From assembly GCA_024672315.1 (NCBI GenBank), contig GCA_024672315.1_4714.1: a DNA stretch of 64,000 nucleotides. One strand, 5' to 3'. The notes below the pieces were generated by a model, which ran no database searches, was not told the origin of the DNA, and saw only the letters and a list, made by a program, of their open reading frames with translations. This DNA is from a phage. This document shows, in pieces, positions 35,457 to 51,074 of the stretch. Position 1 is the stretch's first letter. Every line of letters begins with the position of its first letter. Made by a program: the position numbers and the translations under genes.

Positions 35457-38400
35457 TTATTTAGCGTCGTTAAAGTAAATATCAACAGCTCGTTCCGTTG
35501 CGTAGAGGAGACCAAGATTCACAGTCCCAACCACTTCCGGTGAACCGATGATACGGTTAGCGATACTGGTGCCACTGAAGATAGCATCAAGGGTGTGCCC
35601 GTCTTCGGTTTTGTTCACACCATGACCCACGGAAGAGACAACGGATTTCGCTTGTGCTGCGAAGGTACCTTTATCACCCATCCCCGCACCAAGGTCGTAA
35701 CGCATGAAAATACGGATAGCGATCTGGTTCTCGCCTAACGGATTACCGTCTATTCTCACGTTACTGTTATTGATACGCCCTGTTGTTGCCTCGCTGAGTT
35801 TCAGTTCCTTGACGCGTTTAGCTCGCGCTTTATCCGCTTCACCGACGAGCGCCGCCATGGTTTCGCTCATATCCTCAATCTGAGCGCGGTACAGTACATC
35901 GATCTGTACAACTTCACCATGAACATCAGCACGTGGGTTATACTGACTCATACGACGTAATGCTTCAACGGCTTCCTGACTCTCATCACTCAGATCAGTT
36001 GCGATCGGTTCTTCCAGTGTTGCAAGAATCGTTCGCGGTTCAACGTGGTCGCCGATTTTCACAAGACCACGAATGTTGAGATGGGCGTCAACGATAAGCG
36101 TACGGCTCTTAATCGATGGTGTTACGAGACGATCAGCAAGATTGTCGAAGATATACGAACTGTCCTCGTGAGTCTCTGGAATATCCAGAATACCGACAAG
36201 AGACAGAACACCTGCGCGCCAAACAACCTGACCCGGGTTCCACCAATCGCGTTTAAAATAAAGACGATGGAAAACCACCACATCCTGATCCTTAACGCGA
36301 TCCCCGACTTTATAATCGGTAATGAGATCATGGGGATAATACTTACCTGGTCCTTTCCCGATTATCGTACCGAGCTGGAAAACCTCTTCCCCTAACTCTG
36401 GATCGTCGTATTGTATCGTAAGCGCGGTTTTGGTGACCTTCTTCACAACACCATCGCCTTGGGCAGCTGCTGCGAAGAGCTTACCAACACGATGCGCGAT
36501 GACAGTCTCACCACCTGTACGCCACGGTTGTACATCGTAACCTTCAGCAGCAATCATGCGGTTGTGTTGGATCCCGACAAAGACCAGACGTTTTCCATCG
36601 TCGCGGTCTACAGCCGGAACAGCTAACGCTGACGTACTCATTACCGATGAAATGCCGTCTGTCTTTTCATCGAATGGTCGTGTTTCACCATATACCGACA
36701 CGATATTAGCATTAGGTGCGAGGTAAGCAGAAATACCTACGTCCCCGCTATCTTTCGTACCCTCTGACACAATACCAACATCGGACTTGTCGTATTCACG
36801 ATCGCGTGCGCGTCGAAGCGATGTCTTTGAACGACCTCCGATACCGGTCATCGTCGCTTCTTCACCCTGCTTGATATCCAACATCGGGTTGGTTTCATCA
36901 ATCACGATGGAAGCACTGTCGTCGAGAATCTGGTTCCAGACACTTACCGGACTGATTGATATTTTCTGGCGATTTCCTTGACTGCTGTTCTCATTCTGAC
37001 GAATAGCACCAACCAGGTCCTTATACACCAATTCAGCGAACTTATCGTACGTTTTAAAACGTTGGTAGTTCACATCGTTCGTGTTAGGAGCCCAATCATC
37101 CAGAAGCAGTTCAACAGCACGCAGTAACAACATGGCGAAATCGGTAGGTTCTCCCATGTTCTGTAGCAACGTACGGCTTACCGGATCAACGAAAAGACGC
37201 TCCATGAGTTCAAGTTCGCGTAAATGACGAACCTTAAGTCCAGCACCATCGACAACGTTAAAATAGATATCTCGATTGTCAAAAGCGCCGCGAGCGTAAC
37301 CGATGTAGTTACGGTATTCGTTAAACCCACCCAGCAACAACGTCGTCATGCGATCGTCTTTACTGAAGATCAAACTTTCGTCATCAAAGCTCACCGCGAA
37401 TTCATCGGGTGCTAGACCCATACGAGAACCGCGAGGTACCGTACGATAGTTCGCTTTAAGATGTTCTAATAACGGGGTAAGTCCACCCAGATAACTTAGA
37501 ACAACACCGACCGGAATACGTACACCCATGAATTCAAGATCGGCGGCTTCGATCGGCATCTTAGCCGCATTGATACCGAAGAAATCAGGGAACGTCCCTA
37601 CAGGTGTTGGTGTTTGTCCTGACTGACAGATATAGAGCTGATTGCGTTTATCGATTGCTAAGAATTCACCCAGCGTGTTACGCGCAAACGTCAGGAGCCC
37701 TTCGGCTAACTGTTCGTTGAACCGATCTTCCCCGATGAACTCCGGCAATGTCTTTGTATCGAGACGTATATCCCAATCAGCAAATTGGATTTGGGTATAG
37801 TTGCGTGCAAGCACAGCGAAGTAATACGGAACTTTGACGGCCGGATCAAAGACGTTACCGCGTTTCAACGTGGTTAAGGGTGAGGATTTATCGTAATACA
37901 TCGCCGTAAGTTGACGTGTTAGCCAACGACCGGCGTTATTAACGACGCGCTCTGAACGTTTAACAAACACCTTACCGTAGGCGGTACTCAACGCAACTTC
38001 AGATGACGATACCTTTCTAATAGGTTTATCAACACGTTGTTTACGCATCCGGTATTTGATGCCGTTAACGACATAAATGCCATCCTTACGAACCTTCGGC
38101 AACATCACCGGGAACGTGGTCGGGACACCGCCTACGGGAGCCAGTTTAATCGTGATGACTTGATAATCCCCCATCACGTCAACAACATCTTCGACTTTAT
38201 ATCCCGTAACAGGGTAACCCGCCTGCTGTACCGCAACAACAGCGGCTGCGATGTCCTTTTGCATTACGTGTTCAACGTAATGTTTATCCCACACCGCAAG
38301 CGTCGATTTACACAGGCTCTTATCGACGATAACATCCGCTTCCGGCATAACCTTTGCAGGAGCTAATTTCGCGGCTTTTGGTTTAACTTCAACATACTCG

Positions 38401-39803
38401 GCAAGTGTTAATCCAGAACCGTCGGGTGCTTCGATTTCATGGATGGCGTCAGCATTACGCATCGCTGCTTTATATTGGACACCGCTTAACTGACCTGCAT
38501 CGGCCAGATCGCTCGCGCGCACCAACACCGCATCCGATAACGACTGAATATACTCACCGTGTGTTTTTGGTAACGTTGTCGCGTCAAAGACATCAACCTT
38601 TTCTTCTTCGGTATCGTCGGTAACGACTTCGAAGAGATCGTCGGTAATGTCCTGATCTTCATCAGGTTGGAAATCCGGTTGTACTTCTACCCCAGGTACT
38701 TCACGGACATCTTCGAACGAGCGTTCTACAATGGCGTTCCACGCATCAGCGTCATCGTCTTCATCCGACCCGCCGACCAACTCAGCTTCTAACTCATCGG
38801 GATCAAGAACGGTAGCCAGATCCTCACCGTTAGGAAGCACGACGTCGCGATCATCGTACTCCGCATCCGGGCTGTCCGCAAGAATATCTCGCTCCTGACG
38901 AAGAACCTGTTCCTCTTCTTGTTTCTGTTCTTCTTCATTCGCGCTCTGCGACCACAGACGTGTTACCGCCATCATCCAACGACGTTGGAAGGTTTCAAGT
39001 GTCGTTTTATCGAGTTCTTCCCCTTCCTTTACAAGTCCGGTACGCCATTCTTCCAGCAGGCCGAGATTCAGCGTAAAGAAGTACACGCCGTCTGTGAATA
39101 CAACGTTAAGCTTGTCCAGCGTGGCTCTGTCTAACGAAGCCATCGTGCTGTTCTCACGATCGGTTCCCAGCCAGCGGAAGAAGTCAAAGAACGACAGCTC
39201 CTCCGGTGTGGCGAAATTCATGAGGTTGTTACGGGTCGGTGCCTGTTGCGTGGTACGCATCAACGAAATCTTCGGCAATGTTGACGGTATACGGAACAAC
39301 AAAAAGTGTTGGCGATCGCTTTGCTGTGCGATTTCGTTGGCTTTCGACCAAATTGTTTTACGTACATTGAACCATTCATCATACCAACGGGTGAGCGTTG
39401 GACGATAAATGTACATGTGGTTAAGATGCGCGTAGTTAGCAACGATCTGAGCGTTGATGTTTTTCTCCACCGTGCTTAGATCGGTAACCAAACGAAAACG
39501 ACGATGTGATGCACGATAATCCAATTTCGCTCGTGGGAGTTGGAATCGTTGATCGCGTCGAGGTGCACCCTGTTTGGTTGCGAGATCATCAGCAAACGAA
39601 ATCCATAGTTGAGCATTTTCTTTACTCAGCATGTATTCGTTTTCTGGAGGACCTATCAATGAAGGATCCGTTGCGATGTAATGATAGACAGCATAACGCG
39701 GCAGCTGCAATAGCTGCACTAAACGTAATCTTGGTGATAGTAACTCTTGGTAGCGTCTGACACCAAACTGTCGGTAGTAATCAAGGTATTTAAGTTTTGC
39801 CAT
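35457..39803 (-). CDS. Multisubunit RNA polymerase beta-like subunit (N-terminal part of beta; 1448 aa)
   Basis: TGIGGRS..RRARDREYD..VGIVSEGTKDSGDVGISAYLAPNA aligns with E. coli RpoB [40 protein letters not shown]; downstream AVPAV and GDKG segments align with beta NMQRQAVP and GDKxAGRHGNKG. No GEME region, so the beta C-terminal part is presumably encoded elsewhere. ATG at 39803 preceded by GGAG and an in-frame stop 2 codons upstream. Confidence 0.8.
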   Translation of the reverse strand: MAKLKYLDYYRQFGVRRYQELLSPRLRLVQLLQLPRYAVYHYIATDPSLIGPPENEYMLSKENAQLWISFADDLATKQGAPRRDQRFQLPRAKLDYRASHRRFRLVTDLSTVEKNINAQIVANYAHLNHMYIYRPTLTRWYDEWFNVRKTIWSKANEIAQQSDRQHFLLFRIPSTLPKISLMRTTQQAPTRNNLMNFATPEELSFFDFFRWLGTDRENSTMASLDRATLDKLNVVFTDGVYFFTLNLGLLEEWRTGLVKEGEELDKTTLETFQRRWMMAVTRLWSQSANEEEQKQEEEQVLRQERDILADSPDAEYDDRDVVLPNGEDLATVLDPDELEAELVGGSDEDDDADAWNAIVERSFEDVREVPGVEVQPDFQPDEDQDITDDLFEVVTDDTEEEKVDVFDATTLPKTHGEYIQSLSDAVLVRASDLADAGQLSGVQYKAAMRNADAIHEIEAPDGSGLTLAEYVEVKPKAAKLAPAKVMPEADVIVDKSLCKSTLAVWDKHYVEHVMQKDIAAAVVAVQQAGYPVTGYKVEDVVDVMGDYQVITIKLAPVGGVPTTFPVMLPKVRKDGIYVVNGIKYRMRKQRVDKPIRKVSSSEVALSTAYGKVFVKRSERVVNNAGRWLTRQLTAMYYDKSSPLTTLKRGNVFDPAVKVPYYFAVLARNYTQIQFADWDIRLDTKTLPEFIGEDRFNEQLAEGLLTFARNTLGEFLAIDKRNQLYICQSGQTPTPVGTFPDFFGINAAKMPIEAADLEFMGVRIPVGVVLSYLGGLTPLLEHLKANYRTVPRGSRMGLAPDEFAVSFDDESLIFSKDDRMTTLLLGGFNEYRNYIGYARGAFDNRDIYFNVVDGAGLKVRHLRELELMERLFVDPVSRTLLQNMGEPTDFAMLLLRAVELLLDDWAPNTNDVNYQRFKTYDKFAELVYKDLVGAIRQNENSSQGNRQKISISPVSVWNQILDDSASIVIDETNPMLDIKQGEEATMTGIGGRSKTSLRRARDREYDKSDVGIVSEGTKDSGDVGISAYLAPNANIVSVYGETRPFDEKTDGISSVMSTSALAVPAVDRDDGKRLVFVGIQHNRMIAAEGYDVQPWRTGGETVIAHRVGKLFAAAAQGDGVVKKVTKTALTIQYDDPELGEEVFQLGTIIGKGPGKYYPHDLITDYKVGDRVKDQDVVVFHRLYFKRDWWNPGQVVWRAGVLSLVGILDIPETHEDSSYIFDNLADRLVTPSIKSRTLIVDAHLNIRGLVKIGDHVEPRTILATLEEPIATDLSDESQEAVEALRRMSQYNPRADVHGEVVQIDVLYRAQIEDMSETMAALVGEADKARAKRVKELKLSEATTGRINNSNVRIDGNPLGENQIAIRIFMRYDLGAGMGDKGTFAAQAKSVVSSVGHGVNKTEDGHTLDAIFSGTSIANRIIGSPEVVGTVNLGLLYATERAVDIYFNDAK

Positions 39804-39986: not shown

Positions 39987-40505
39987 CCTTGTCTTCGCCT
40001 CAGGTCGCTACGCTGAGACCGCCTGCGTGGATACGTACATCACAGGCTGCTTGCACTTTCATGCAAGAGGAGACTATATCAAACCGTCAGCTTCACCTGC
40101 TACGGTAACCTACACTTCGAAGACGCTTGTCCTCTACAGGGTGGTAAATCCCTTAGTCGTTGAACCTGCGTTGTTTCACATTCTTGTTTGCAAGAATGCC
40201 GTATTGCTACGCAACAACCAGGCTGCTGATTGCCCATTATCACGCACCTTAGCACCGCTTACGCGGCTTTTCTTTCAGCCTAAGCCTCCGTGGGAGGTAG
40301 TGCATCTCAACTGTTGTTTCCGCCTTTCGGCACCTCATGGGTTGTTGAGCTTTAGGGGTTCCCAGCAATTCGTAGGTTTTTCAAGCACTCCCTTTCGGGA
40401 ATACCGGACCAATTCAGTTAGTAAACAACATTATTACCATCCCTCATTCTTAAGGGTTAATTTTTTAAAATGATAAAATTAATGTGTTTTTGGGCTAACT
40501 CGAAG
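39987..40505 (-). other. Group I self-splicing intron (about 519 nt) within the RNAP beta-prime gene
   Basis: On the minus strand in canonical order: P-like AATTGCTGGGAAC (plus 40358-40370), Q-like AATCAGCAGCC (40221-40231), R-like GTTCAACGACTAAGG (40151-40165) and S-like GATATAGTC (40072-40080); exon 1 ends in U, the intron ends in G; no long ORF on the intron coding strand. Confidence 0.75.
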
Positions 40506-41972
40506 ATCACCGCCTAAACCGGCGAGGTATGGCGCAGGAACAATAGTCGTTTCTACGAACGAAGCATTAGGTAACCAGTCGGGGTATTCCCATGCGATAA
40601 ATCGTTCATCCGTTATTGGTTCCCAGTTACTATCCAGTTCGGTTTTCGGTTTTGCAGCGACGGTTGTACGCGCGTAACAGGTTAACGGGATAACGGATTG
40701 CATACCCGATACCGGATAACGTGTTACCATCGCAGCCAGGTTATTCCAGTACTTATATCCGGCGATATAGATAAGCTCGGTGTAAGTAATGGGGTGAACA
40801 TCCGCACCAGGTTTATTCAACATCTCTGGGGGTAATTCACTCATACCACGGAATAACCGAAACGAATCGTTGTTCACATAGACGAGGCAAAGATAACGTC
40901 CATTAACCATGATAGGCTCGTTACGCACACCAGGATCGCTTAAGGTGTTCAATAAACGTTCTATTCCGTCCCATGTTGTAAAGTCATCGATGGTATCTGG
41001 GTCTAACGTGACACGTTCACGTTCCATCGTTTCGATATCGATAAGTTCAACTTCTGTAACATCACGGACAAATATTTCCTGCAAAATCCCCGTACGTAGC
41101 GCATGTTGCGTTACAGGGAGAGCAGCTTTACTCATCTGGTATAACCCTAACTGAACCGCGGTACAGGAAGGCTGGTTAGGCGACCCTAATACCTCCGTTG
41201 TGGGGTTAATTGCCGAAATAACGTTACGGGTTGAGTTCCAAACGCGACGTGAGCCGAACTTACCTTGGAAGATCCCTTTCTTACCCTGGAACATATCCAA
41301 CAGTAAAGCGTAGATATCGTTAAATGTTCTCTGTAAGCTCCAACGTTGACCGTCGTAAACGGGATCAGAATAATCTTTTAATCCATCAGGGACGGTGTTA
41401 GAAATTGCAAGGAAACGACGATACAACTCCGTGATTTCTTGCTCGCTTTCATACCCACCTTCTTTTACTTCTATTTCACGTAAGCCTGCAGGCAATACCA
41501 GTAAGTGACGGGTCATCGCTTTGAACATGTTCTCTTCGACAACTTTAATTCGTAGCTCTCGTTGAGCTGAACCCGTTGAAACGAACTTGATATCAGCGAC
41601 GTGTTGTGCAAAGAACCCGTATCCTGTTTGTCCTGTTAATGCATCAGACGCAACGAAGTCGCGTTGTTCAGGATCCCAACGAGCATACGCCTTTCCCGAC
41701 ATGATATCACCATAGAGGTGTTTTAGTCGAATGAGGCGGTCGTAAATGACGGGATGCAGGATTTCAACTTTGCATTCAATCACCGCAAATCGACGGTCTC
41801 GATCTTCACTACCTGCGCTACCAAAGATGGTGTAAGAATAGAAACCATCATCGTGGAAATTACCGGTGCTTGGGTCACGAATGCTCATGCTCGTGATCTT
41901 GGGGAGAAAACGTAACTGCTGTTTATCGAGGTGTAAAATGCTAATGTTAAACGGCTCTCTGACTTTAGCCAT
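40506..41972 (-). CDS. RNA polymerase beta-prime-like subunit N-terminal part, exon 1
   Basis: AVIECKVEILHPVIY (compare GHIELAAPVAH), LLVLPAGLREIEV..EITELYRRFLAISN (compare VLPVLPPDLRPL..DLNDLYRRVINRNN) and FQGKKGIFQGKFGSRRVWNSTRNVIS (compare [23 protein letters not shown]); ATG at 41972 preceded by AAGAGGAG. The unspliced frame runs 8 codons into the intron to a stop at 40479. Confidence 0.8.
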
Positions 41973-42217
41973 GGAGACACTCCTCTTTACCACCACCGGC
42001 TGCGGCGGTATCATCTGAACACACGAGAGACGTAATGGGTGATGGCGTCACCCATCGCTTCCTTGCCTGATGCCAGGAAGTTATTAGGTTACGTACCGGC
42101 TTGATAAAATCAAGCAGGCGATGTGTGAAGTTACGCTTCAACATTATCAATGCCGAAGGTAAGCTTCGTGCATCACGTTCCAACGTAACATGGGAACGTA
42201 TCGAACTGGAGGTATAC

Positions 42218-45200
42218 ATGGTAGATAAAACCCGTGTTGAGGGTGATGATAATTGGGATAACTGGGATGAAGACTTCTCCCTGGATCTCGATTTCAACGA
42301 ACCCAAAGACGATCGTAAACCGATAACACGCTTTGCGATAGGAGCGGTTAAAGGTGCCGCTGAGGATCTTACTTCCTACGAAAGAATGAAGGAGATCGCC
42401 AGAAACGCATTGCCTAAGGGCTACAGCGACGGTATGGATCTTATCGATTCCGCCGTCGGATCCACGAAGGAACTATACAATGAAGCCGTTCGTGACGTTC
42501 TTCCTAAGGTCCAAAGCTCAAAACGGTTAGCTGCACAACTGACCAAGAAATACCGCGCGAGCATGCCCGATTTCTCGAAGAAAATTCTCGAGCAATGGGA
42601 GCGAGAAGCCAAGGAAGAAGACGAACGTAAACATGCTGAAGAAACCCTTCGTCAACGCATGGCGAGCGCGGGGGACGATGAGATTGCCCGCAAGGTTGCC
42701 GAGGCATTAGGCGAATCAGCAAACCAAAACGCGGATCAGTTCGCTGAACAGCAAGCGAAAGAGAGTATCCGTGACGATATCGCTGATAAACGGTACGCTG
42801 TAACCAACAAACAAATGAGTGCGATGCAAGAAGGCGTCGCCAAGATGGTTGGTTTCAACAACGAATTCGCTGCACGTTACATGCGTAAAAGCCTGGAACT
42901 GAAATATCGTTCCTTAGCGATTCAACGTGCAAGTTTTGATCAGCATAAAAAGTTAGCCGAAGTCTATATCGGTTTATTACAAAACATCCAGAAGAATACG
43001 GCTTTACCTGATGCGGCTAAAGCGAAAATGTCGGAAGAATTCCGTCGTAGCGCATACCAACGTTTCTTTGGTAATGCGTTAGATGCGATGGGTTCTTTCG
43101 AGAACCGTTTCTTTGCCGATGTTAAGAAGAACCTTGCCACCAACGCATTAGGTGCTTTAAAAGGCGTCGTGTCTGGCGCAAACGATGCGTTATACGGTTT
43201 AAACGAAGCGCGTGACTCGATGTCCATGATGGACGGGATGGGGTCAGAAGGCGATATTAAGGAAATGCAAGGAAAGATGTTGGGTCAGTTCATTGGCTCA
43301 ACTGTCGCACCATGGATGGCTAATAAAGGCAGGATGGCGTTACGTGATTTAGCAAAACGCCACCCCAATGCTAAATTCGCAAGTGCGTTAAAAGCCGTGG
43401 ATCAAGGTGGTGAGGCTGCCGCTTACACGACGCGTAATCTCGGTAAACTGCTCCAGGAAGATATTCGTAAAAACGAATTCAATCTTAGCGATCCGTTTTA
43501 CAAGCAATTAATACGCGGCGCAGGGCGTTGGGCGTTCAACATGGACAGCGGACGTAACTTCCGTGTGATGAACGACACCGCTGAAACGCTGGCGGAGCAA
43601 ACGTCTTTCGACGGTTTAACCTACCGCAGCATCAACGAGGTTATTCCAGGCTTTCTTGCACGCATTCTGAAAAGCAGTGAAGGTATCCGCACCGGAAACA
43701 GCGATCCTGACTACGAGGTCTATGACGGCATCAGCGGGCAATTCGTGTCTCAGCGCACGCGTGAGCAAAGCGTCAACGACACACTGTTTAACAAACGTAC
43801 GTTTGGTTATTACGCCAGCCGTTTCAACGAGGTTATCTCGGTCATCGATCCCGATAAGAAATTATCGGAAAAAGCCAGGAAGGCACTGGCTAAGCAGCTG
43901 GCACGAGATAGCGACGCAAACATCGCATTCGACCCAGCTCGTTTTACGGATGAAAGCAACTTCGATCGTAGTATTGACCGCGACGCTATTAAGGAACTTT
44001 CCACGTACTTTCGTGATCGTTACGGTATTCGTGACGATATCAACGATAAGGGCGAACGTCATCAGGTCATTGGAAACCGCGGGCAATATTACACGGAACG
44101 TAACCGAGCTGACCTTCGCTACGGTAATCTGAAATCTTTACAGCCGGATATTCAGCGTAACCTTAACCTACTGAAACGTACTGGTGACGTCCAATATCTG
44201 GAACGTATTGGTATCGTAACGAGAAATAGCGACGGAAGCTACTCGGTTAATCACGATCGGTATTTCTCTGAAATCGATCGATACATCGACCGACCGGAGT
44301 ACGCTGAACGTAACGACGTTAATACGCGATTAACCGCTCAGGAAACAAGAGCGCTGGCGTTGGGTTATCGTGACGCAAAACCATCAGCTGATGACGTCCA
44401 AAATGCGGGTCTGCCACACATCGGTCGTAAGGCTGTTGGAACAGTAACCGTTGATGAAAACATCGGCTACGATAAATGGTGGAACGACACAGGTGTTATC
44501 ACCACATCGCTTGAAGAACAGAATCGAGCGTGGCAAGAACTCTATCTCGAAGCGTTATCTGAAGCATCCGAACAACGTACTGAAATGCTTGCGTTACTGA
44601 AAGCCATTTCTGAGAAAGACCGGTCTAATAACGTTTCGTTGGACGGCGAAGATGTACCTGAAGGTACGGCACCCATTTCATTTATCGATCGTGCCAAACA
44701 AAAACTCGGTGCACGCAACCCCTTTAAAGGCGGCCGTAATCTCCTCTGGAAAGGAATTAAAAATACCGCACGTTGGGGTGTTAAAGGCGCGCGCTGGGGT
44801 GCAGAACGCACGTTGGGTAGTTTGGTAAATTCTGGCCGTCGCATTATCAATTTCAACCGTTTTGTGTTCGGTGCATTATCCAAAGTCGATCAGGTTCCGT
44901 TTGACATTTACGTTAAAGGGGAATCCCAACCACGCATACTGGCTGCTAAACTTCGTCAGGGGTTATACTTCGACGAAGCGACAGGAAAAGCCGTAAAACG
45001 GATGAAGGATATCAAAGGCCCACTCGTTGATGCTGATGGAAACATCGTAATCAGCAACGAGGATATCGAGAAAGGGTTGGTCACTCGCGCGGGTCGTGCC
45101 TTTGAGAATTCAGGACTTAAGGCGTGGGCACGTGAAGGTCTTAATGGAATCACGACGGTATTAAGTCTACCACGGATGTTAAAACGCGGTGCGGTCGAGA

Positions 45201-48200
45201 TCTACAAACAGCTTGACAAGACGCCCGACGTTTACGTCAAGGGAGAATCAACGCCTCGTCTGTTGTCCATGGTGTTAGCAGCGGGTGGGTATTTCCGTCG
45301 GTCGGATGGACAAGTCATCAAAAATCTTGAAGACATCGATGGTGATGTTGTTGATGCACAAGGTAACGTCGTACTTACGCTTGCCGACATGCAGAAAGGA
45401 CTTGTCGATAAATACGGTAAAGCGATTCGTCGCTTAAAAGAAAAGCTCATCAACTTCGGTGTAAAAGCTTTTACGTTACCGTTAACGCTGCTACGTAAGA
45501 CAAAGGACATCCTTAAAGCCCTTCCAGGTAAAGCCGTTAACGGTCTACGACGGATGGGATTAAACTTCCAATCACCTGACGCATTACTGGTGGGAACAAC
45601 GTCGAGTATGGTAGATCGTCTCGATGCGATTTACCAGCTTCTTGACCAGCGTATGCCGGGTGGTGATAAGGATTACCGCGATTGGAATGGCGATGGTGTT
45701 CGAGAAGGATCGCTGGAAGACCTAAAACGTAAGCGTGAAGCCAAGGAAAACGGTAAGGACGACACCGGCAAAGATTCCAATAAAGGGGAAGAAAAGGAGA
45801 AGAAACGAGGATTACTCGGAAGCCTTTTCGATATGCTCGGCGATACCGCATTAGGCAAACGACTCATGGCGAGTCCGCTTGGAAAAATTCTAGGTGGTCT
45901 TGGGGCGGTGTTAAGCGGCGGTGCATCGTTAACCGGGTTGTTGGGCAAGGGTCTCATTAGTGGAACCGGCGCGCTGGTCAAGGGGGGACTAAGTGCGGCA
46001 GGATGGTTAGGACGTGGTGCGTTAATGGCGGGTGGGGCCGCGTTGAACGCCGTTGGTGGGTTATCGGGATTAGGTGCATTCCTTATCTCACCTGTTGGGC
46101 TTGCTATCGCTGGCGGTGCATTGGCTGCTTATGCTGGATGGAAGATCTATCAGCATTTCGCTGAGAAGCCTGACCCGATGCAGAAACTCCGTCTTATTGC
46201 ATACGGTGCAAAAGGGGACGATAAAGACTTCAATAAGAAGCTGCTTGCGACAGAAACATACCTCACCGATCACGTGGTTATGACCGGGGATACCATCGGA
46301 TTCGATCCGAAAGCGGATTCTGAAAAGATTCTCGAAATCTGGGAATTGTCCCTGGAAGATTCCGACCGAATGAACGAATGGAAACGCTGGTATCTGCATC
46401 GTTTTATTCCTGTTTTCGCTCGTGCGTACAAACTCTGGAAAGAGCATATGCCGGACGAGAAGAAATACATGGAAATGGATAAATATCCGAACGGTGAGAA
46501 CAAAGTGAAATGGTCGGAAGCGTTTATCTGGCCTTCCGATAGTCCTGACGGTCCGTATTACGTCGAAGCTAACCCGTTGGGTTCTTCTGGTGCGACGCGT
46601 TATATTGCTGGTCAAGACGTCAAAACCTTGATGCTGAAACAACTCGAAGCCATCAAGAAAGAGTACCAGAATCAGATTAAGCAATACACTCATGATGAGG
46701 CTATTGCTGATTGGTCACGGATGTCTGACACGCAACGTAAATCCGTTGCGCCTAACGCATTACGCGGTCAGAAAGCGTCGTTACGTTTTAACGATAAACG
46801 TTACAACAGTGCTGGCGCTAAAGGACGACAGAAGCTTGACGCAACCGCGGTTATTGAAAGCGTAGACCGTCGTGGTAGAAAATGGGTTGCCGGTGGATAC
46901 ATCGATGAACTCACCAGTCTCCGTGTTCGTGCGTACGGTATCAAGGTTCCGTTGTTAAGTCAGATAAAAGTGCTGATGGAACTCGAAGACGCTGTAGAAC
47001 CTGGCGTAGTCGCTGAAGGTAAAGGTGTTAAATACGGTGGCGATCTTGTTGCGCTCTACAAGAAATTCGCGACGAAGTTCGGAAGAGACGTTAACAGCAA
47101 GCGGGATCAGGATATCTGGTTCGCTTGGATGAATAACCGTTTCCTGCCCGTCTTTTTAACCTATTACCAACAAGTTAGCGACATGGGCGGTCAAGGACTT
47201 CTGTCCGACGTGGTACAGAACCTGAAAGACAGCCAACGCTGGGAAATCGGTGAAGCACTTGTCGCAACGCAATACCGTGATGAGAAAGGTACACTGCAGC
47301 CTGTATGGTCCTGGAATAGTTGTGGTTTCTCCGGTACTGAAGCTAACACCACCAGCAGTTCAACAAAGAGCCAGCTCGATCTGTTAAAAGAATATGCGGA
47401 TAAAGAGAAGGTTCGTGAGAAGAACGCGGAAGCATCGCAAGAGGATGCCGATAAATTATCGAAGATCCAAGAGCTGATGATGAAGCAGGCTGGGTACGAG
47501 AAGAAAGACGGTGTCTGGCAGAAGAAATCACGCATTACCGGCGGGATGAGTAACGCCGAAGCGAATTACAACCCCAATGGGAATAGGGTAGGTGCAAGCA
47601 GCTTTACTGCTTCGGCTACTTCCAGTGCTGGGTTGGGGTCAACCGGCGATCTTACTGGATTGCCTAACATGGGCTTACAGAAACCTGCAATGGGACCAGG
47701 TCCTGAAGCTGGACGTCGTGCGCTTGTTAAATCCGCTGTAAAACGCGGCATTACCGATCCAATGGAAATGGCGATGTTCCTCGCGAACATCGAACATGAA
47801 TCAGGGAACTACACTCACGTACGTGAGGGGAACTATAAGACACCAGAGCGTCTTAAACAGGTCTTCCCTTACAAATTCCGTGATGTACAGGATGCCGCAC
47901 AGACGATCAGCATGGGGCCGGAAGCGGTATTCGAACGTGTGTATGGTAATCGTAAAGATCTCGGGAACACACAGAAAGGGGACGGGGCGAAGTATTTAGG
48001 ACGTGGCTTCATTCAGGTTACCGGTAAAGCTAACTACGCTCGTCTGTCCAAGACCTTGAATAAGGATCTTGTCAGCGATCCGACATACCTGGAAACGCCG
48101 GAAGGTGCGGCGGAAGGTAGTGTCGCATGGTGGCTCAACCGAGGTAACGTGTTACGCGATCCCGCAAAACGGGGTGATGTACGCCAAGTTCGTTATCTGG

Positions 48201-48883
48201 TTAACGGCGGTTTTAACGGATTACGCGATGTTGAACAACGTTCAGCTTATTGGATTCAGGCGGCTAAGAATGGCACCCTGAAGAGAATGATGGACGAGTT
48301 ATCAGGGTCAACATCAGACGATCAAGCTGAAGGACCGACCACTGCCGAACAGGTGAAGAACGAAGCAGCACAAGAGGCAAACGGAACACCTGCTGTAAGC
48401 AACGATCCGCAAGCCCCAGTATCTTCTACTACCCCTGAAGCTAAACCGTCTGCGGCTGCCGGGACGGCCCCAGCACCTGGAGAAGCATCACCAACGCCTG
48501 GAAGTTTCGAAACAGCAAAAGCCGCGGCAGGACAACCGACATCAACTCCAGCACCTAGCGATTTGCCGTCAAACCCGGGCGCAAATCGAGGGATATCGGT
48601 TCCGAATACGCCTGCACAGGTTGCGCAGTCTGCGACACAAACATCGGTTGCAAGTGAGAACTTCTACGGTAGCGCAGGTGAAATTCTCCGACAGCAGCTG
48701 ACCACGCAGCAGAACATCGAGAAGAACACCGGTAGAACGAATGAACTTATTTCGGAATTAATCCAAGCCGTTAAGGGTTCTTCTATCGGTAAGGGTTCTG
48801 CAGGTCCTTCTCAACAACAGACGATGTCGCTACCTAATCGTCCGCAAGGAATCTCTCCAACACGGACAAGGTACGCACAGTAG
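42218..48883 (+). CDS. Giant virion protein (2221 aa) with glycine-zipper membrane segment and C-terminal GH19-like muralytic domain
   Basis: Start re-assigned to ATG at 42218 (GGAGGTATAC RBS). Gly-rich hydrophobic segment at about 45900-46150; GH19/chitinase-like motifs ANIEHESGNY and YLGRGFIQVTGKANY at about 47760-48270; P/A/S/T-rich linker at 48290-48600. Size and domain order resemble the ~2237-aa phiKZ gp181 family. Confidence 0.8.
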   Translation: MVDKTRVEGDDNWDNWDEDFSLDLDFNEPKDDRKPITRFAIGAVKGAAEDLTSYERMKEIARNALPKGYSDGMDLIDSAVGSTKELYNEAVRDVLPKVQSSKRLAAQLTKKYRASMPDFSKKILEQWEREAKEEDERKHAEETLRQRMASAGDDEIARKVAEALGESANQNADQFAEQQAKESIRDDIADKRYAVTNKQMSAMQEGVAKMVGFNNEFAARYMRKSLELKYRSLAIQRASFDQHKKLAEVYIGLLQNIQKNTALPDAAKAKMSEEFRRSAYQRFFGNALDAMGSFENRFFADVKKNLATNALGALKGVVSGANDALYGLNEARDSMSMMDGMGSEGDIKEMQGKMLGQFIGSTVAPWMANKGRMALRDLAKRHPNAKFASALKAVDQGGEAAAYTTRNLGKLLQEDIRKNEFNLSDPFYKQLIRGAGRWAFNMDSGRNFRVMNDTAETLAEQTSFDGLTYRSINEVIPGFLARILKSSEGIRTGNSDPDYEVYDGISGQFVSQRTREQSVNDTLFNKRTFGYYASRFNEVISVIDPDKKLSEKARKALAKQLARDSDANIAFDPARFTDESNFDRSIDRDAIKELSTYFRDRYGIRDDINDKGERHQVIGNRGQYYTERNRADLRYGNLKSLQPDIQRNLNLLKRTGDVQYLERIGIVTRNSDGSYSVNHDRYFSEIDRYIDRPEYAERNDVNTRLTAQETRALALGYRDAKPSADDVQNAGLPHIGRKAVGTVTVDENIGYDKWWNDTGVITTSLEEQNRAWQELYLEALSEASEQRTEMLALLKAISEKDRSNNVSLDGEDVPEGTAPISFIDRAKQKLGARNPFKGGRNLLWKGIKNTARWGVKGARWGAERTLGSLVNSGRRIINFNRFVFGALSKVDQVPFDIYVKGESQPRILAAKLRQGLYFDEATGKAVKRMKDIKGPLVDADGNIVISNEDIEKGLVTRAGRAFENSGLKAWAREGLNGITTVLSLPRMLKRGAVEIYKQLDKTPDVYVKGESTPRLLSMVLAAGGYFRRSDGQVIKNLEDIDGDVVDAQGNVVLTLADMQKGLVDKYGKAIRRLKEKLINFGVKAFTLPLTLLRKTKDILKALPGKAVNGLRRMGLNFQSPDALLVGTTSSMVDRLDAIYQLLDQRMPGGDKDYRDWNGDGVREGSLEDLKRKREAKENGKDDTGKDSNKGEEKEKKRGLLGSLFDMLGDTALGKRLMASPLGKILGGLGAVLSGGASLTGLLGKGLISGTGALVKGGLSAAGWLGRGALMAGGAALNAVGGLSGLGAFLISPVGLAIAGGALAAYAGWKIYQHFAEKPDPMQKLRLIAYGAKGDDKDFNKKLLATETYLTDHVVMTGDTIGFDPKADSEKILEIWELSLEDSDRMNEWKRWYLHRFIPVFARAYKLWKEHMPDEKKYMEMDKYPNGENKVKWSEAFIWPSDSPDGPYYVEANPLGSSGATRYIAGQDVKTLMLKQLEAIKKEYQNQIKQYTHDEAIADWSRMSDTQRKSVAPNALRGQKASLRFNDKRYNSAGAKGRQKLDATAVIESVDRRGRKWVAGGYIDELTSLRVRAYGIKVPLLSQIKVLMELEDAVEPGVVAEGKGVKYGGDLVALYKKFATKFGRDVNSKRDQDIWFAWMNNRFLPVFLTYYQQVSDMGGQGLLSDVVQNLKDSQRWEIGEALVATQYRDEKGTLQPVWSWNSCGFSGTEANTTSSSTKSQLDLLKEYADKEKVREKNAEASQEDADKLSKIQELMMKQAGYEKKDGVWQKKSRITGGMSNAEANYNPNGNRVGASSFTASATSSAGLGSTGDLTGLPNMGLQKPAMGPGPEAGRRALVKSAVKRGITDPMEMAMFLANIEHESGNYTHVREGNYKTPERLKQVFPYKFRDVQDAAQTISMGPEAVFERVYGNRKDLGNTQKGDGAKYLGRGFIQVTGKANYARLSKTLNKDLVSDPTYLETPEGAAEGSVAWWLNRGNVLRDPAKRGDVRQVRYLVNGGFNGLRDVEQRSAYWIQAAKNGTLKRMMDELSGSTSDDQAEGPTTAEQVKNEAAQEANGTPAVSNDPQAPVSSTTPEAKPSAAAGTAPAPGEASPTPGSFETAKAAAGQPTSTPAPSDLPSNPGANRGISVPNTPAQVAQSATQTSVASENFYGSAGEILRQQLTTQQNIEKNTGRTNELISELIQAVKGSSIGKGSAGPSQQQTMSLPNRPQGISPTRTRYAQ

Positions 48884-48932: not shown

Positions 48933-51074
48933 ATGGGTATTCTTGTTCAAAACGCCCTAATAACCAAACAAGCGTTTTTATTACCTGGCGATAGCAGCAC
49001 GCTTAGTGCTGACATGATTAAAGCGAGACATACACCGTATTCCTACGATAACGTCGATGATACCACCTTAGGTGGGAACTGGGTGCTTAACCCGCCACCG
49101 CAATATACCAAATTTGCCGACATCAAAGAACGCCGACGTGCGGTTATGCCGGGATCAACGGGCATGGGCCGAGGCTATAGTGAAAGCATTAACAGCTTTA
49201 AAGAAGTCGTTACCTTACGATTCGGTAAACCTCGCTTTACAGGCGCAAGTATCTTCTTTACCGATTTCTACGACGCCGATGTTGCCGTAACGGTTAAAAC
49301 CGGTCGCGATCCCGGTATTCTTTATTACGCAGCCAAAGCGTATACCACCGTTCTTTCTTACCTCACACCGCTACCTTACCTGTATATGGTTGGACGTATC
49401 GGTCGATATTTCCTGGGTAAGCCTACCAGTCAATATTACTATCAAGTACCAACCATGCACGTGTATTGGGCGTCTTTCCAGACGCTGGTAAACCAAACAG
49501 CGATAAACATGGGTCTTATCGCCGGTGCCGGTAAAGATAAAGGCTACGTGGAAGAAGGGGGTACCGTACTCCATCAATATTCAATCGGTGGTCAGAACGT
49601 TGAAGAATTCATCAACTACGCCTCTAAGACGCTACCGGGGATTTATAAGAAAGGTGGTGGGATCGATATCTACCAGATTGCAACACGTCGTCAGCGTATA
49701 CAAAACGCATGGGTACGTCGTATTCAATCCATGATGGAAAACGATTACTCGTCTTACGAGGAGTTCTGGAACGATCTTGATAAACGACTTGATAGCGGAG
49801 CATTTCCATCGGATGTAACCGGTCGTACGTTAACGCAGTATCTCGCCGACACACAGAAGTCTGCTGTTTACAGTGCGACAGCTGGTGATAATAAACAAAC
49901 GATGGACGACCTTTTATTCGGAAGGGCCTCATACACCAACAAGGATGCTGATGCTAACTTCAATGTCTCAGCGGCTACCTCCGACGGCGGTACGTCAACA
50001 CAGAGTCAGGGTACAACAGCCAATGTCGGTAATTCAACATCGGGGACAACGCAGGCTTCAACAGCAGCATCCACGGCTGGAGGCGCGAACGTACAGAGCA
50101 AAGGAATCGGACAAACGAATGCAGCCGAAGAAGCTACGTTTCTTGATCTGATGGACGCTGAATTGGCCGACGGTGCTCAGTTCATCAGTTTTCGAGTCGA
50201 TTCTGTCACCAGTGTAACCGAAACGTTTTCAAACAGTGCTTCAGAAAGTTCAATCGCACAGACGATGAACAGCCGTGCACAAGCGAACATCGAACGTCGT
50301 TTCACCCTCTCCGGCGGTAATACAGGTTGGGCTGTACTGGACGAAGCCATCAAAGCCGGTTCCGACCTCGTTAATGGCGCTATTTCCGGGATGGGTTTGG
50401 ATGGTATTTTTGGTGCCTTCATGGGTTCCGGCTTCGCTGACATTCCGAAATTCTATTCTGGGTCTTCGGTAAGTCTACCGCGTGCGGATCTGACGATGGA
50501 ATTGCGTTCCTGGAGTGGGGATCGTTGGTCGATCTTTACGAACCTCATGGTACCTCTTTTAGCGATCCTTGCAGGTGGTTTACCTCAGGCTACCGGTAAA
50601 TCGTCCTACGGGATGCCATTCATGTGTGAGTGTTATATTCCCGGTAAAGTCCAGATTAAAATGGGTCTTATCGATAACATCACTGTGACGCGTCATGTTG
50701 GGAACGTACCATCAACGCGTGAGCGATTACCGTTGGGTATCGATGTCAGCTTCAGTGTTTATGACCTGTCGTCCATCGTCGCCATGCCGATCACAACGAC
50801 AGCCGCATCGATCGCAAAACTGGATCCTCGTGGCTTCTTAAGTGATCTTCTTGCTGATGATACCCCACTCAACAACTATCTTGCTGTATTATCGGCATTG
50901 ACACTTACGGAACAAGTTTACATGATTCCTGATTTAAGTCGTCGTATGCATAAAACCATGGCCGATATCGATAGTTTCTGGAGCAAAGGTAATTTTGCTA
51001 GCTGGTTATCTGACACCATGCCAGGCAGGATAGCATCAGGGCTGTTATGGAAACGTACAGAACGACCGTTCTGA
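48933..51074 (+). CDS. Hypothetical protein, probable virion protein (713 aa)
   Basis: Long ORF immediately downstream of the giant gene; contains a Ser/Thr/Gly-rich low-complexity region. Confidence 0.7.
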   Translation: MGILVQNALITKQAFLLPGDSSTLSADMIKARHTPYSYDNVDDTTLGGNWVLNPPPQYTKFADIKERRRAVMPGSTGMGRGYSESINSFKEVVTLRFGKPRFTGASIFFTDFYDADVAVTVKTGRDPGILYYAAKAYTTVLSYLTPLPYLYMVGRIGRYFLGKPTSQYYYQVPTMHVYWASFQTLVNQTAINMGLIAGAGKDKGYVEEGGTVLHQYSIGGQNVEEFINYASKTLPGIYKKGGGIDIYQIATRRQRIQNAWVRRIQSMMENDYSSYEEFWNDLDKRLDSGAFPSDVTGRTLTQYLADTQKSAVYSATAGDNKQTMDDLLFGRASYTNKDADANFNVSAATSDGGTSTQSQGTTANVGNSTSGTTQASTAASTAGGANVQSKGIGQTNAAEEATFLDLMDAELADGAQFISFRVDSVTSVTETFSNSASESSIAQTMNSRAQANIERRFTLSGGNTGWAVLDEAIKAGSDLVNGAISGMGLDGIFGAFMGSGFADIPKFYSGSSVSLPRADLTMELRSWSGDRWSIFTNLMVPLLAILAGGLPQATGKSSYGMPFMCECYIPGKVQIKMGLIDNITVTRHVGNVPSTRERLPLGIDVSFSVYDLSSIVAMPITTTAASIAKLDPRGFLSDLLADDTPLNNYLAVLSALTLTEQVYMIPDLSRRMHKTMADIDSFWSKGNFASWLSDTMPGRIASGLLWKRTERPF

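Follow-up and report, generated by a model that had tools for sequence, protein, structure and literature searches.

A phiKZ gp181-like giant protein of the Goslar lineage, probably a tail-internal protein with a tape-measure-like N-terminal part and a GH19 endolysin-type domain

The giant gp181-like proteins of phiKZ and its relatives have been described as tail-associated peptidoglycan hydrolases and, more recently, as likely tape measures (PMC5380687, PMC5105663, bioRxiv 10.1101/2025.11.23.690004). The gp181 protein of Pseudomonas phage phiKZ is a lysin and a structural part of the virion, and its muralytic activity has been measured (Briers 2008, reviewed in PMC5380687); its database note reads "tail-associated endolysin". 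Its counterpart in Salmonella phage SPN3US, gp239, has been named tape measure protein and is missing from the particles of a tailless mutant (PMC5105663). Outside this family, the Pb2 protein of phage T5 has a hydrophobic stretch of 46 residues, which has been proposed to form a channel in a membrane, while its C-terminal domain is cleaved and digests peptidoglycan after expulsion from the tail tube (bioRxiv 10.1101/2022.09.20.507954). The present analysis concerns a gene for a giant protein in a stretch of phage DNA of 64,000 nucleotides (nt), referred to here as the window (GenBank assembly GCA_024672315.1, contig GCA_024672315.1_4714.1). The gene occupies positions 42218 to 48883 on the plus strand, on which all features of the protein described below also lie, and encodes 2,221 amino acids (aa). 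It is probably the Goslar-lineage orthologue of phiKZ gp181 and SPN3US gp239, that is, a giant, essential tail-internal protein of the nucleus-forming jumbo phages (Chimalliviridae), whose helical N-terminal part resembles a tape measure and which also carries a virion-associated peptidoglycan hydrolase.

The gene is complete, as indicated by the list of open reading frames (ORFs), its start region, its identity to a Goslar gene and its match to PHROG 3201. The longest mechanically called ORF spans 42101–48883 (+), and translation from the ATG at 42218 yields the 2,221 residues. A GGAGG Shine-Dalgarno sequence is located 7 nt 5' of this ATG, which appears to be the most plausible start, more likely than the upstream GTG used for Goslar. 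That GTG, 93 nt upstream (window position 42125), is the start in the Goslar GenBank and RefSeq entries and in the 2,252-aa cluster representative P0001. The original prediction, made from the letters of the window and a list of its ORFs, had assigned the giant protein to 44903–48600. This span represents only part of the gene, which starts 2.7 kb further upstream and ends 283 nt further downstream. The four sequence features described there (a tandem repeat, a hydrophobic segment, a GH19-like domain and a tail rich in Pro, Ala, Ser and Thr) all exist, at essentially the positions given for them.

Escherichia phage vB_EcoM_Goslar, a nucleus-forming jumbo phage of 237 kb, carries the closest relative. 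Positions 42218–48880 (6.66 kb) aligned to its genome over the full length with 96.4% nucleotide identity. The protein shares 97.9% amino acid identity with Goslar gp204, corresponding to 46 substitutions and no insertions or deletions over 2,221 aa. Substitution rates between the two are 0.7–1.7% in the repeat modules, the hydrophobic segment and the GH19 domain, and 2.7–5.4% in the N-terminal part and the linkers. The Goslar protein is named "putative chitinase" in GenBank (Goslar_00232, COG3179) and "tail fiber protein" in RefSeq, and the chitinase reading is also found in the Goslar genome paper (PMC6563267).

Membership of the gp181-like family is supported by profile, pairwise and gene-order comparisons. 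Residues 11–1170 match PHROG 3201 with an E value of 1.5e-295. In a BLASTP comparison with phiKZ gp181 (NP_803747, 2,237 aa), residues 35–693 and 887–1730 align with E values of 2e-45 and 4e-37, respectively. Searches by tblastn also detected the scaffold in jumbo phages of Erwinia, Aeromonas, Serratia, Klebsiella, Vibrio, Ralstonia, Pseudomonas and others. The gene order is the same in phiKZ, where the RNA polymerase (RNAP) beta' genes of the gp178–gp180 region lie divergently upstream, followed by gp181 and gp182. In the window, the ORFs at 35457–39803 (−) and 40479–42014 (−) match PHROGs of RNAP beta subunits, and both are divergent from the giant gene. The 3' neighbour at 48933–51074 (+), encoding 713 aa, is a homologue of phiKZ gp182 (PHROG 3181, E 6e-172), for which PHROGs gives no function. 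A recent transposon-sequencing preprint names phiKZ gp182 a baseplate protein, and both gp182 and orf181 were without transposon insertions there. By analogy with its homologues phiKZ gp181 and SPN3US gp239, the window protein would likewise be located in the tail.

The lytic part of the protein is a GH19 endolysin-type muralytic domain at residues ~1836–2030 (47723–48307). A phmmer search against the PDB returned 9EOI (E 2e-24), TfcB 7R6S (1e-22), PWe1 and PWe2 (9ms6/7, ~1e-21) and the SPN1S endolysin 4OK7 (3e-19), with plant and bacterial GH19 chitinases as weak matches. The region also matches PHROG 181, "endolysin", with an E value of 8e-53. The Pfam search of the window protein gave no match to PF01464 (SLT). 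The earlier reading of the domain as GH19-like rather than of the soluble lytic transglycosylase type is borne out. Core positions were read against the conserved core of the GH19 Engineering Database (PMC8547705) via the alignment to 4OK7. Both catalytic glutamates, for which a check had been proposed, are present: E1861 (nt 47798) corresponds to the proton donor and E1870 (nt 47825), nine residues on, to the base, while T1935 (nt 48020) corresponds to the water-coordinating threonine (E49, E58 and T130 in SPN1S). Further core residues found are, in SPN1S numbering, A40, F42, A44, H48, S50, Y106, G123-R124-G125, Q128, N134-Y135 and N187-G188, together with the NGG core and the endolysin-specific G118. 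The domain, with its intact Glu/Glu/Thr set, may act as a muramidase.

The position of the lytic domain is occupied by different enzymes in different members of the family. According to precomputed Pfam annotations of 120 homologues, the C-terminal slot contains SLT (PF01464) in 70, VanY in eight, CHAP in seven, GH19 in five and M23 in four. Others carry PF18013, PF13884, PF18925 or PF21277, and phage-lysozyme domains are likewise found in this slot. For relatives from Aeromonas and Erwinia phages, which are annotated as "chitinase" or "lysozyme domain protein", the alignment covers the GH19 region too; GH19 is thus a known variant of the family. Judged from these sequence comparisons, the lytic domain is an exchangeable cassette in a fixed scaffold.

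It is followed by a linker at residues 2039–2149 (48332–48664), 60% of which is Pro, Ala, Ser or Thr. The original prediction had described this region as a tail. Its composition was recognised correctly, yet it is a linker rather than the protein end, as another 72 aa follow. This C-terminal segment (48665–48880) found phmmer matches only in the Goslar-like clade (P0001–P0005), always at the extreme C-terminus. The C-terminal 77 aa had been considered as a family-wide anchor, an idea that was rejected because they are conserved in the Goslar clade only.

The central part of the protein contains two kinds of repeated module. Module 1 is present as copy a at residues 889–999 (44882–45214), with a beta-rich core of ~65 aa followed by a helical linker, and as copy b at residues 997–1104 (45206–45529); both are supported by alignment, a hidden Markov model (HMM) and AlphaFold2 (AF2) models. 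The sequence DIYVKGES... of the first copy starts at nt 44903 (residue 896) and its counterpart in the second, DVYVKGES..., at nt 45227 (residue 1004), an offset of 108 aa or 324 nt. Without gaps, 30 of 60 core residues are identical, and the BLOSUM62 score of 163 compares with 23.3 ± 4.5 in 2,000 shuffles (z = 30.9). Over the whole unit, residues 889–999 and 997–1104 share 38% identity across 111 aa (E 1e-22). The claim of two homologous modules of ~108 aa spaced 324 nt apart is thus confirmed against shuffled controls. AF2 predicts for each copy a beta-rich domain of ~65 residues with a predicted local distance difference test (pLDDT) score above 90, and then a less confident helical linker. 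A third, degenerate copy further upstream had been suggested by a weak BLAST match between residues 801–918 and 938–1026, and is supported neither by the family HMM nor by AF2.

The duplication is not peculiar to the window protein but belongs to an ancient family-wide repeat with one to six copies, three of them in phiKZ gp181. An HMM built from the two window copies and then iterated detected module 1 in 118 of 121 proteins (the query and 120 homologues). After iteration there was one copy in 18 proteins, two in 70, three in 12, four in 15, five in two and six in one. The iterated HMM drifted into the flanking linkers and was used for these copy counts only; the boundaries are those of the two-sequence HMM. 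When 1.84 billion representative proteins were searched with a single-module profile, 1,294 matched at E ≤ 0.001. The best 150 of these are almost all 1,800–3,450 aa long with two to six copies each, a size and copy profile that marks module 1 as a signature of the giant-protein family. From these matches, module 1 appears confined to phiKZ gp181-like giant proteins. Neither a Pfam family nor a relative in the PDB was found for it.

Variation in copy number seems to be absorbed within the scaffold. The number of module 1 copies correlates neither with total protein length (rho −0.15) nor with how far module 2 lies from the N-terminus (rho 0.00; n = 106), and the array begins earlier in proteins with more copies (rho −0.57, p 3e-10); these correlations ignore the phylogenetic non-independence of the proteins. 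Such length compensation would be expected of a length-constrained ruler, for which it is suggestive only.

Between the module 1 array and the second kind of module lies a Gly/Ala/Leu-rich hydrophobic segment at residues 1197–1311 (45806–46150), recognised by composition and hydropathy as a candidate membrane-inserting element. It consists of 26% Gly, 21% Leu and 17% Ala. The only two stretches among the 2,221 residues with a Kyte-Doolittle value above 1.3 over 19 residues, 1224–1243 and 1272–1308, are both found here. The original prediction had described a glycine zipper of 70 residues. The hydrophobic Gly/Ala/Leu-rich stretch is real and longer than supposed (~115 aa), whereas the zipper label has to be dropped, since the corresponding spacing is depleted. 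Only one zipper motif, (G/A/S)xxxGxxxG or GxxxGxxx(G/S/T), occurs in the segment, against 4.2 ± 2.0 in composition-matched shuffles, and GxxxG occurs three times against 7.3 ± 2.0 (z = −2.1). Across the family, glycine spacing has a median z of −0.8 and exceeds z = 2 in only 2–3% of the proteins. The glycine-zipper hypothesis was rejected, with a spacing that is under-represented in the window protein and not enriched family-wide.

The position of the segment is invariant. Both modules are present in 107 family proteins, and in every one of them the order is module 1, Gly-rich hydrophobic segment, module 2. The Kyte-Doolittle value of the segment exceeds 1.3 in 97 of these 107. In the 110 residues that precede module 2, the glycine content is 23%, compared with 10% overall. 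Hydropathy, positional conservation and analogy suggest that residues 1197–1311 may insert into a membrane. Just upstream, at residues 1155–1163 (45680–45706), the protein contains the family-conserved motif DWNGDGVRE, and a charged linker also belongs to this region. Of 122 family proteins, 69 have the pattern D-x-[DN]-G-D-G-x-R-[DE], and its place is always between module 1 and the hydrophobic segment. The motif resembles the DxDxDG calcium-binding loop and may be a putative site of this type.

Module 2 is a second duplication, absent from the original prediction. It comprises ~140 aa with the motifs LR..AYG and W..RF.PVF. Copy a is located at residues 1317–1455 (46166–46582) and copy b at residues 1563–1680 (46904–47257), with E values of 3.5e-49 and 1.4e-16 to the family profile. 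An internal BLAST comparison relates residues 1319–1400 to 1563–1646 (E 0.004). Among the homologues, 70 have two copies, 36 have one and four have three; phiKZ gp181 has two. Some homologues have a hydrophobic segment of their own before each module 2 copy.

The N-terminal part is predicted to be largely helical. In an AF2 model of residues 112–1311, long alpha-helices of 141, 75, 35, 21, 10 and 18 residues cover residues ~118–443 (42569–43546), with low confidence (pLDDT 35–68). Further long helices are predicted before and between the modules, with several folded domains interspersed, again with low confidence. Long N-terminal helices of this kind would be expected for a tape measure. A globular alpha/beta domain is modelled with better confidence (pLDDT 80–92) at residues ~500–700 (43718–44320). 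It falls inside the stretch aligned with phiKZ gp181 residues 46–704, the part most conserved with that protein. Just before this domain, a nearly invariant SINEVIPGFLARI...IRTG motif was observed. A Foldseek search of the PDB with the model of residues 112–1311 found no match below E 0.1, and none for the globular domain. The flagellin and F-BAR matches it returned merely reflect the long helices and were discarded.

T5 Pb2 and the data on homologues suggest how such a protein might act. The protein would assemble inside the tail tube and, upon sheath contraction, would leave it through the baseplate. Its GH19 domain, close to the C-terminus, could then locally cut the glycan strands of the peptidoglycan. 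The hydrophobic segment might partition into a host membrane and help to form or anchor a conduit for the DNA and co-injected proteins.

Several observations weigh against this interpretation. The position inside the tail tube and the setting of tail length are inferred from analogy. The ~500 predicted helical residues (low confidence) would span ~75 nm end to end, and phiKZ-type tails are ~200 nm long, a length that these helices by themselves fall well short of. No tail-assembly chaperone pair of the G/GT (lambda) type flanks the gene, the upstream neighbour being the divergent RNAP subunit gene; such a pair is not universal among myoviruses, and its absence therefore carries little weight. 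The equivalent segment of phiKZ gp181 is weakly hydrophobic, with a maximum Kyte-Doolittle value of 1.22. AF2 gives no helices for the window segment, although at a pLDDT of ~25 the model is uninformative on membrane insertion. Three core positions of GH19 endolysins are changed in the lytic domain, Q45 to N, R109 to D and R196 possibly to V. The domain also scores only 18.1 bits with Pfam PF00182, over a stretch of 39 residues and below the gathering threshold of 25.5 bits, which is why no domain is present in precomputed annotations of Goslar-clade proteins. The PF00182 model is built mainly on chitinases. Given the endolysin-type structures matched at E 2e-24, this shortfall reflects the model rather than the fold. 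Finally, the older literature places gp181 in the cell-puncturing device (PMC5380687).

This last point leads to the main alternative, according to which the protein is a component of the central cell-puncturing needle of the baseplate. It would be T4 gp5-like in function, with the lysozyme at the tail tip and the rest of the protein forming the spike or hub. The proposal agrees with the original assignment of phiKZ gp181 (Briers 2008, Fokine 2008, summarised in PMC5380687) and with a downstream gene whose phiKZ homologue is named a baseplate protein. However, no OB-fold, beta-helix or gp27/gp5-like region was found by Pfam, PHROGs or the fold search of residues 112–1311, and the N-terminal third is predicted to form very long helices. 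With its hydrophobic segment of 115 aa and its 2,221 residues, the protein would suit the tube lumen better than a spike, and homologues are named tape measures in the recent literature. We regard the needle as unlikely, if still worth keeping in mind.

Another proposal is that the protein is packaged in the head and injected with the DNA, like an ejection protein of the inner-body type. In chimalliviruses, numerous proteins are packaged in the head and then injected, as described in PMC5694885 and in bioRxiv 10.1101/2024.03.24.586471, and the gene adjoins those of the virion RNA polymerase, whose products are head-packaged. The behaviour of SPN3US gp239 speaks against such a location, as it is missing from tailless, head-only particles, and both the annotation and the literature put phiKZ gp181 in the tail. 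This makes head packaging very improbable. The original prediction of a tape-measure or ejection protein that is both muralytic and membrane-inserting is retained as far as it describes a tail protein of the tape-measure family with an intact GH19 domain, and given up with respect to ejection as head cargo.

There is scarcely a case for a lysis enzyme, as the name "chitinase" with COG3179 in GenBank and the Goslar genome paper (PMC6563267) would have it. Although the domain has true GH19 endolysins among its relatives, it accounts for less than 9% of the 2,221 aa, and homology to a family of structural virion proteins extends over the rest. In addition, phiKZ gp181 is a virion protein, SPN3US gp239 is lost with the tail, and endolysins are typically small and soluble. 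A tail fibre or receptor-binding protein, for which the RefSeq product name and the PHROG 3201 category speak, is hardly credible either. The protein showed neither fibre-like repeats nor collagen or beta-helix features nor receptor-binding domains, but does contain a lytic domain and an internal hydrophobic segment. The label, which appears to be automatically propagated, contrasts with the phiKZ note quoted above.

For the preferred assignment, a tail-internal protein of the gp181-like family, a more specific role may be considered. In nucleus-forming phages, the injected genome is received by the early phage infection (EPI) vesicle (bioRxiv 10.1101/2024.03.24.586471). The block consisting of the module 1 array, the DxDGDG motif, the Gly-rich segment and the module 2 array might be a lineage-specific membrane-remodelling device, which would seed or shape the inner-membrane-derived EPI vesicle after expulsion from the tail, rather than a generic channel former of tape-measure type. 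We consider this a long shot. If it were true, module 1 would be a new fold with a specific role in the envelope or near the membrane. No paper that links the giant tail protein with the EPI vesicle came up in the literature search, and the structure and literature search likewise returned no solved structure for a member of the phiKZ gp181-like family.

The assignment corrects two misleading labels, "putative chitinase" and "tail fiber protein", given to what is an essential part of the tail in a model coliphage that forms a nucleus. It also provides a domain map of the family, with two ancient repeat modules of variable copy number, a positionally invariant Gly-rich segment, the DxDGDG motif and an exchangeable slot for SLT, GH19, M23, VanY or CHAP domains. 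Such a map was not found in Pfam or in the searchable literature. It bears on the way in which chimalliviruses get through the envelope and on the origin of the membrane-bound EPI vesicle, and at the family level phage structural biologists should find it moderately interesting. For enzybiotic work, the GH19 module may be of interest, as was the lytic domain of phiKZ gp181.

Beyond the giant gene, a group I intron was detected at 40050–40434 (−), between the two virion RNAP beta'-like genes (Rfam RF00028, 63.6 bits, E 4.5e-15). The stop codon of the ORF upstream of the intron (40479–40481) lies ~45 nt before the intron 5' end. About 1.57 kb of the Goslar sequence is missing from the window at the intron (compare L001, 8308–10287). 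On this missing piece lies the neighbouring ORF Goslar_00230, a possible homing endonuclease with weak similarity to phiKZ ORF179; its absence makes the intron of the window an ORF-less version.

Among described systems, T5 Pb2 is a parallel in mechanism, with no relationship in sequence to be expected. On the proposed mechanism, the window protein would resemble Pb2 in a helical ruler, followed by hydrophobic segments and a C-terminal peptidoglycan-digesting domain, and in expulsion at infection. Pb2 differs in belonging to a siphovirus, in being about half the size, in its lytic motif of the zinc-peptidase type and in lacking modules 1 and 2. With the GH19 endolysins (SPN1S 4OK7, 9EOI and TfcB 7R6S), the protein shares the catalytic Glu/Glu/Thr set and the GRG..Q.T...NY and NGG core. 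Those proteins are free lysis enzymes of ~200 aa, whereas the domain is located here near the C-terminus of a structural protein of 2,221 aa, and the three-helix peptidoglycan-binding insert of the SPN1S endolysin is not evident.

The closer relationship is with the gp181-like family. SPN3US gp239 is taken to belong to the same family of giant tail proteins on the basis of tblastn matches to Salmonella jumbo phages and of the literature. phiKZ gp181 agrees with the window protein in size, synteny, N-terminal homology and the order of module 1, Gly-rich segment, module 2 (two copies) and lytic domain. At ~25% identity, it has three copies of module 1 instead of two, and a Gly-rich segment that is shorter and less hydrophobic. 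Its lytic domain is of the lytic-transglycosylase/lysozyme type ("glycosidase" in the literature; most family members have PF01464) in contrast to GH19 here. In 2008, Briers is said to have placed that domain at residues 1880–2042, nearly the same position as ~1836–2030 in the window protein. Goslar gp204 (Goslar_00232, QBO64023.1 / YP_009820915.1) is the same gene with the same neighbours. The combination of features is not new, since it is already contained in this GenBank entry with 97.9% identity, where the GH19 variant is annotated as "chitinase". The protein is thus no new kind of system: its gene has essentially been deposited in GenBank, and its family has been studied since 2008.

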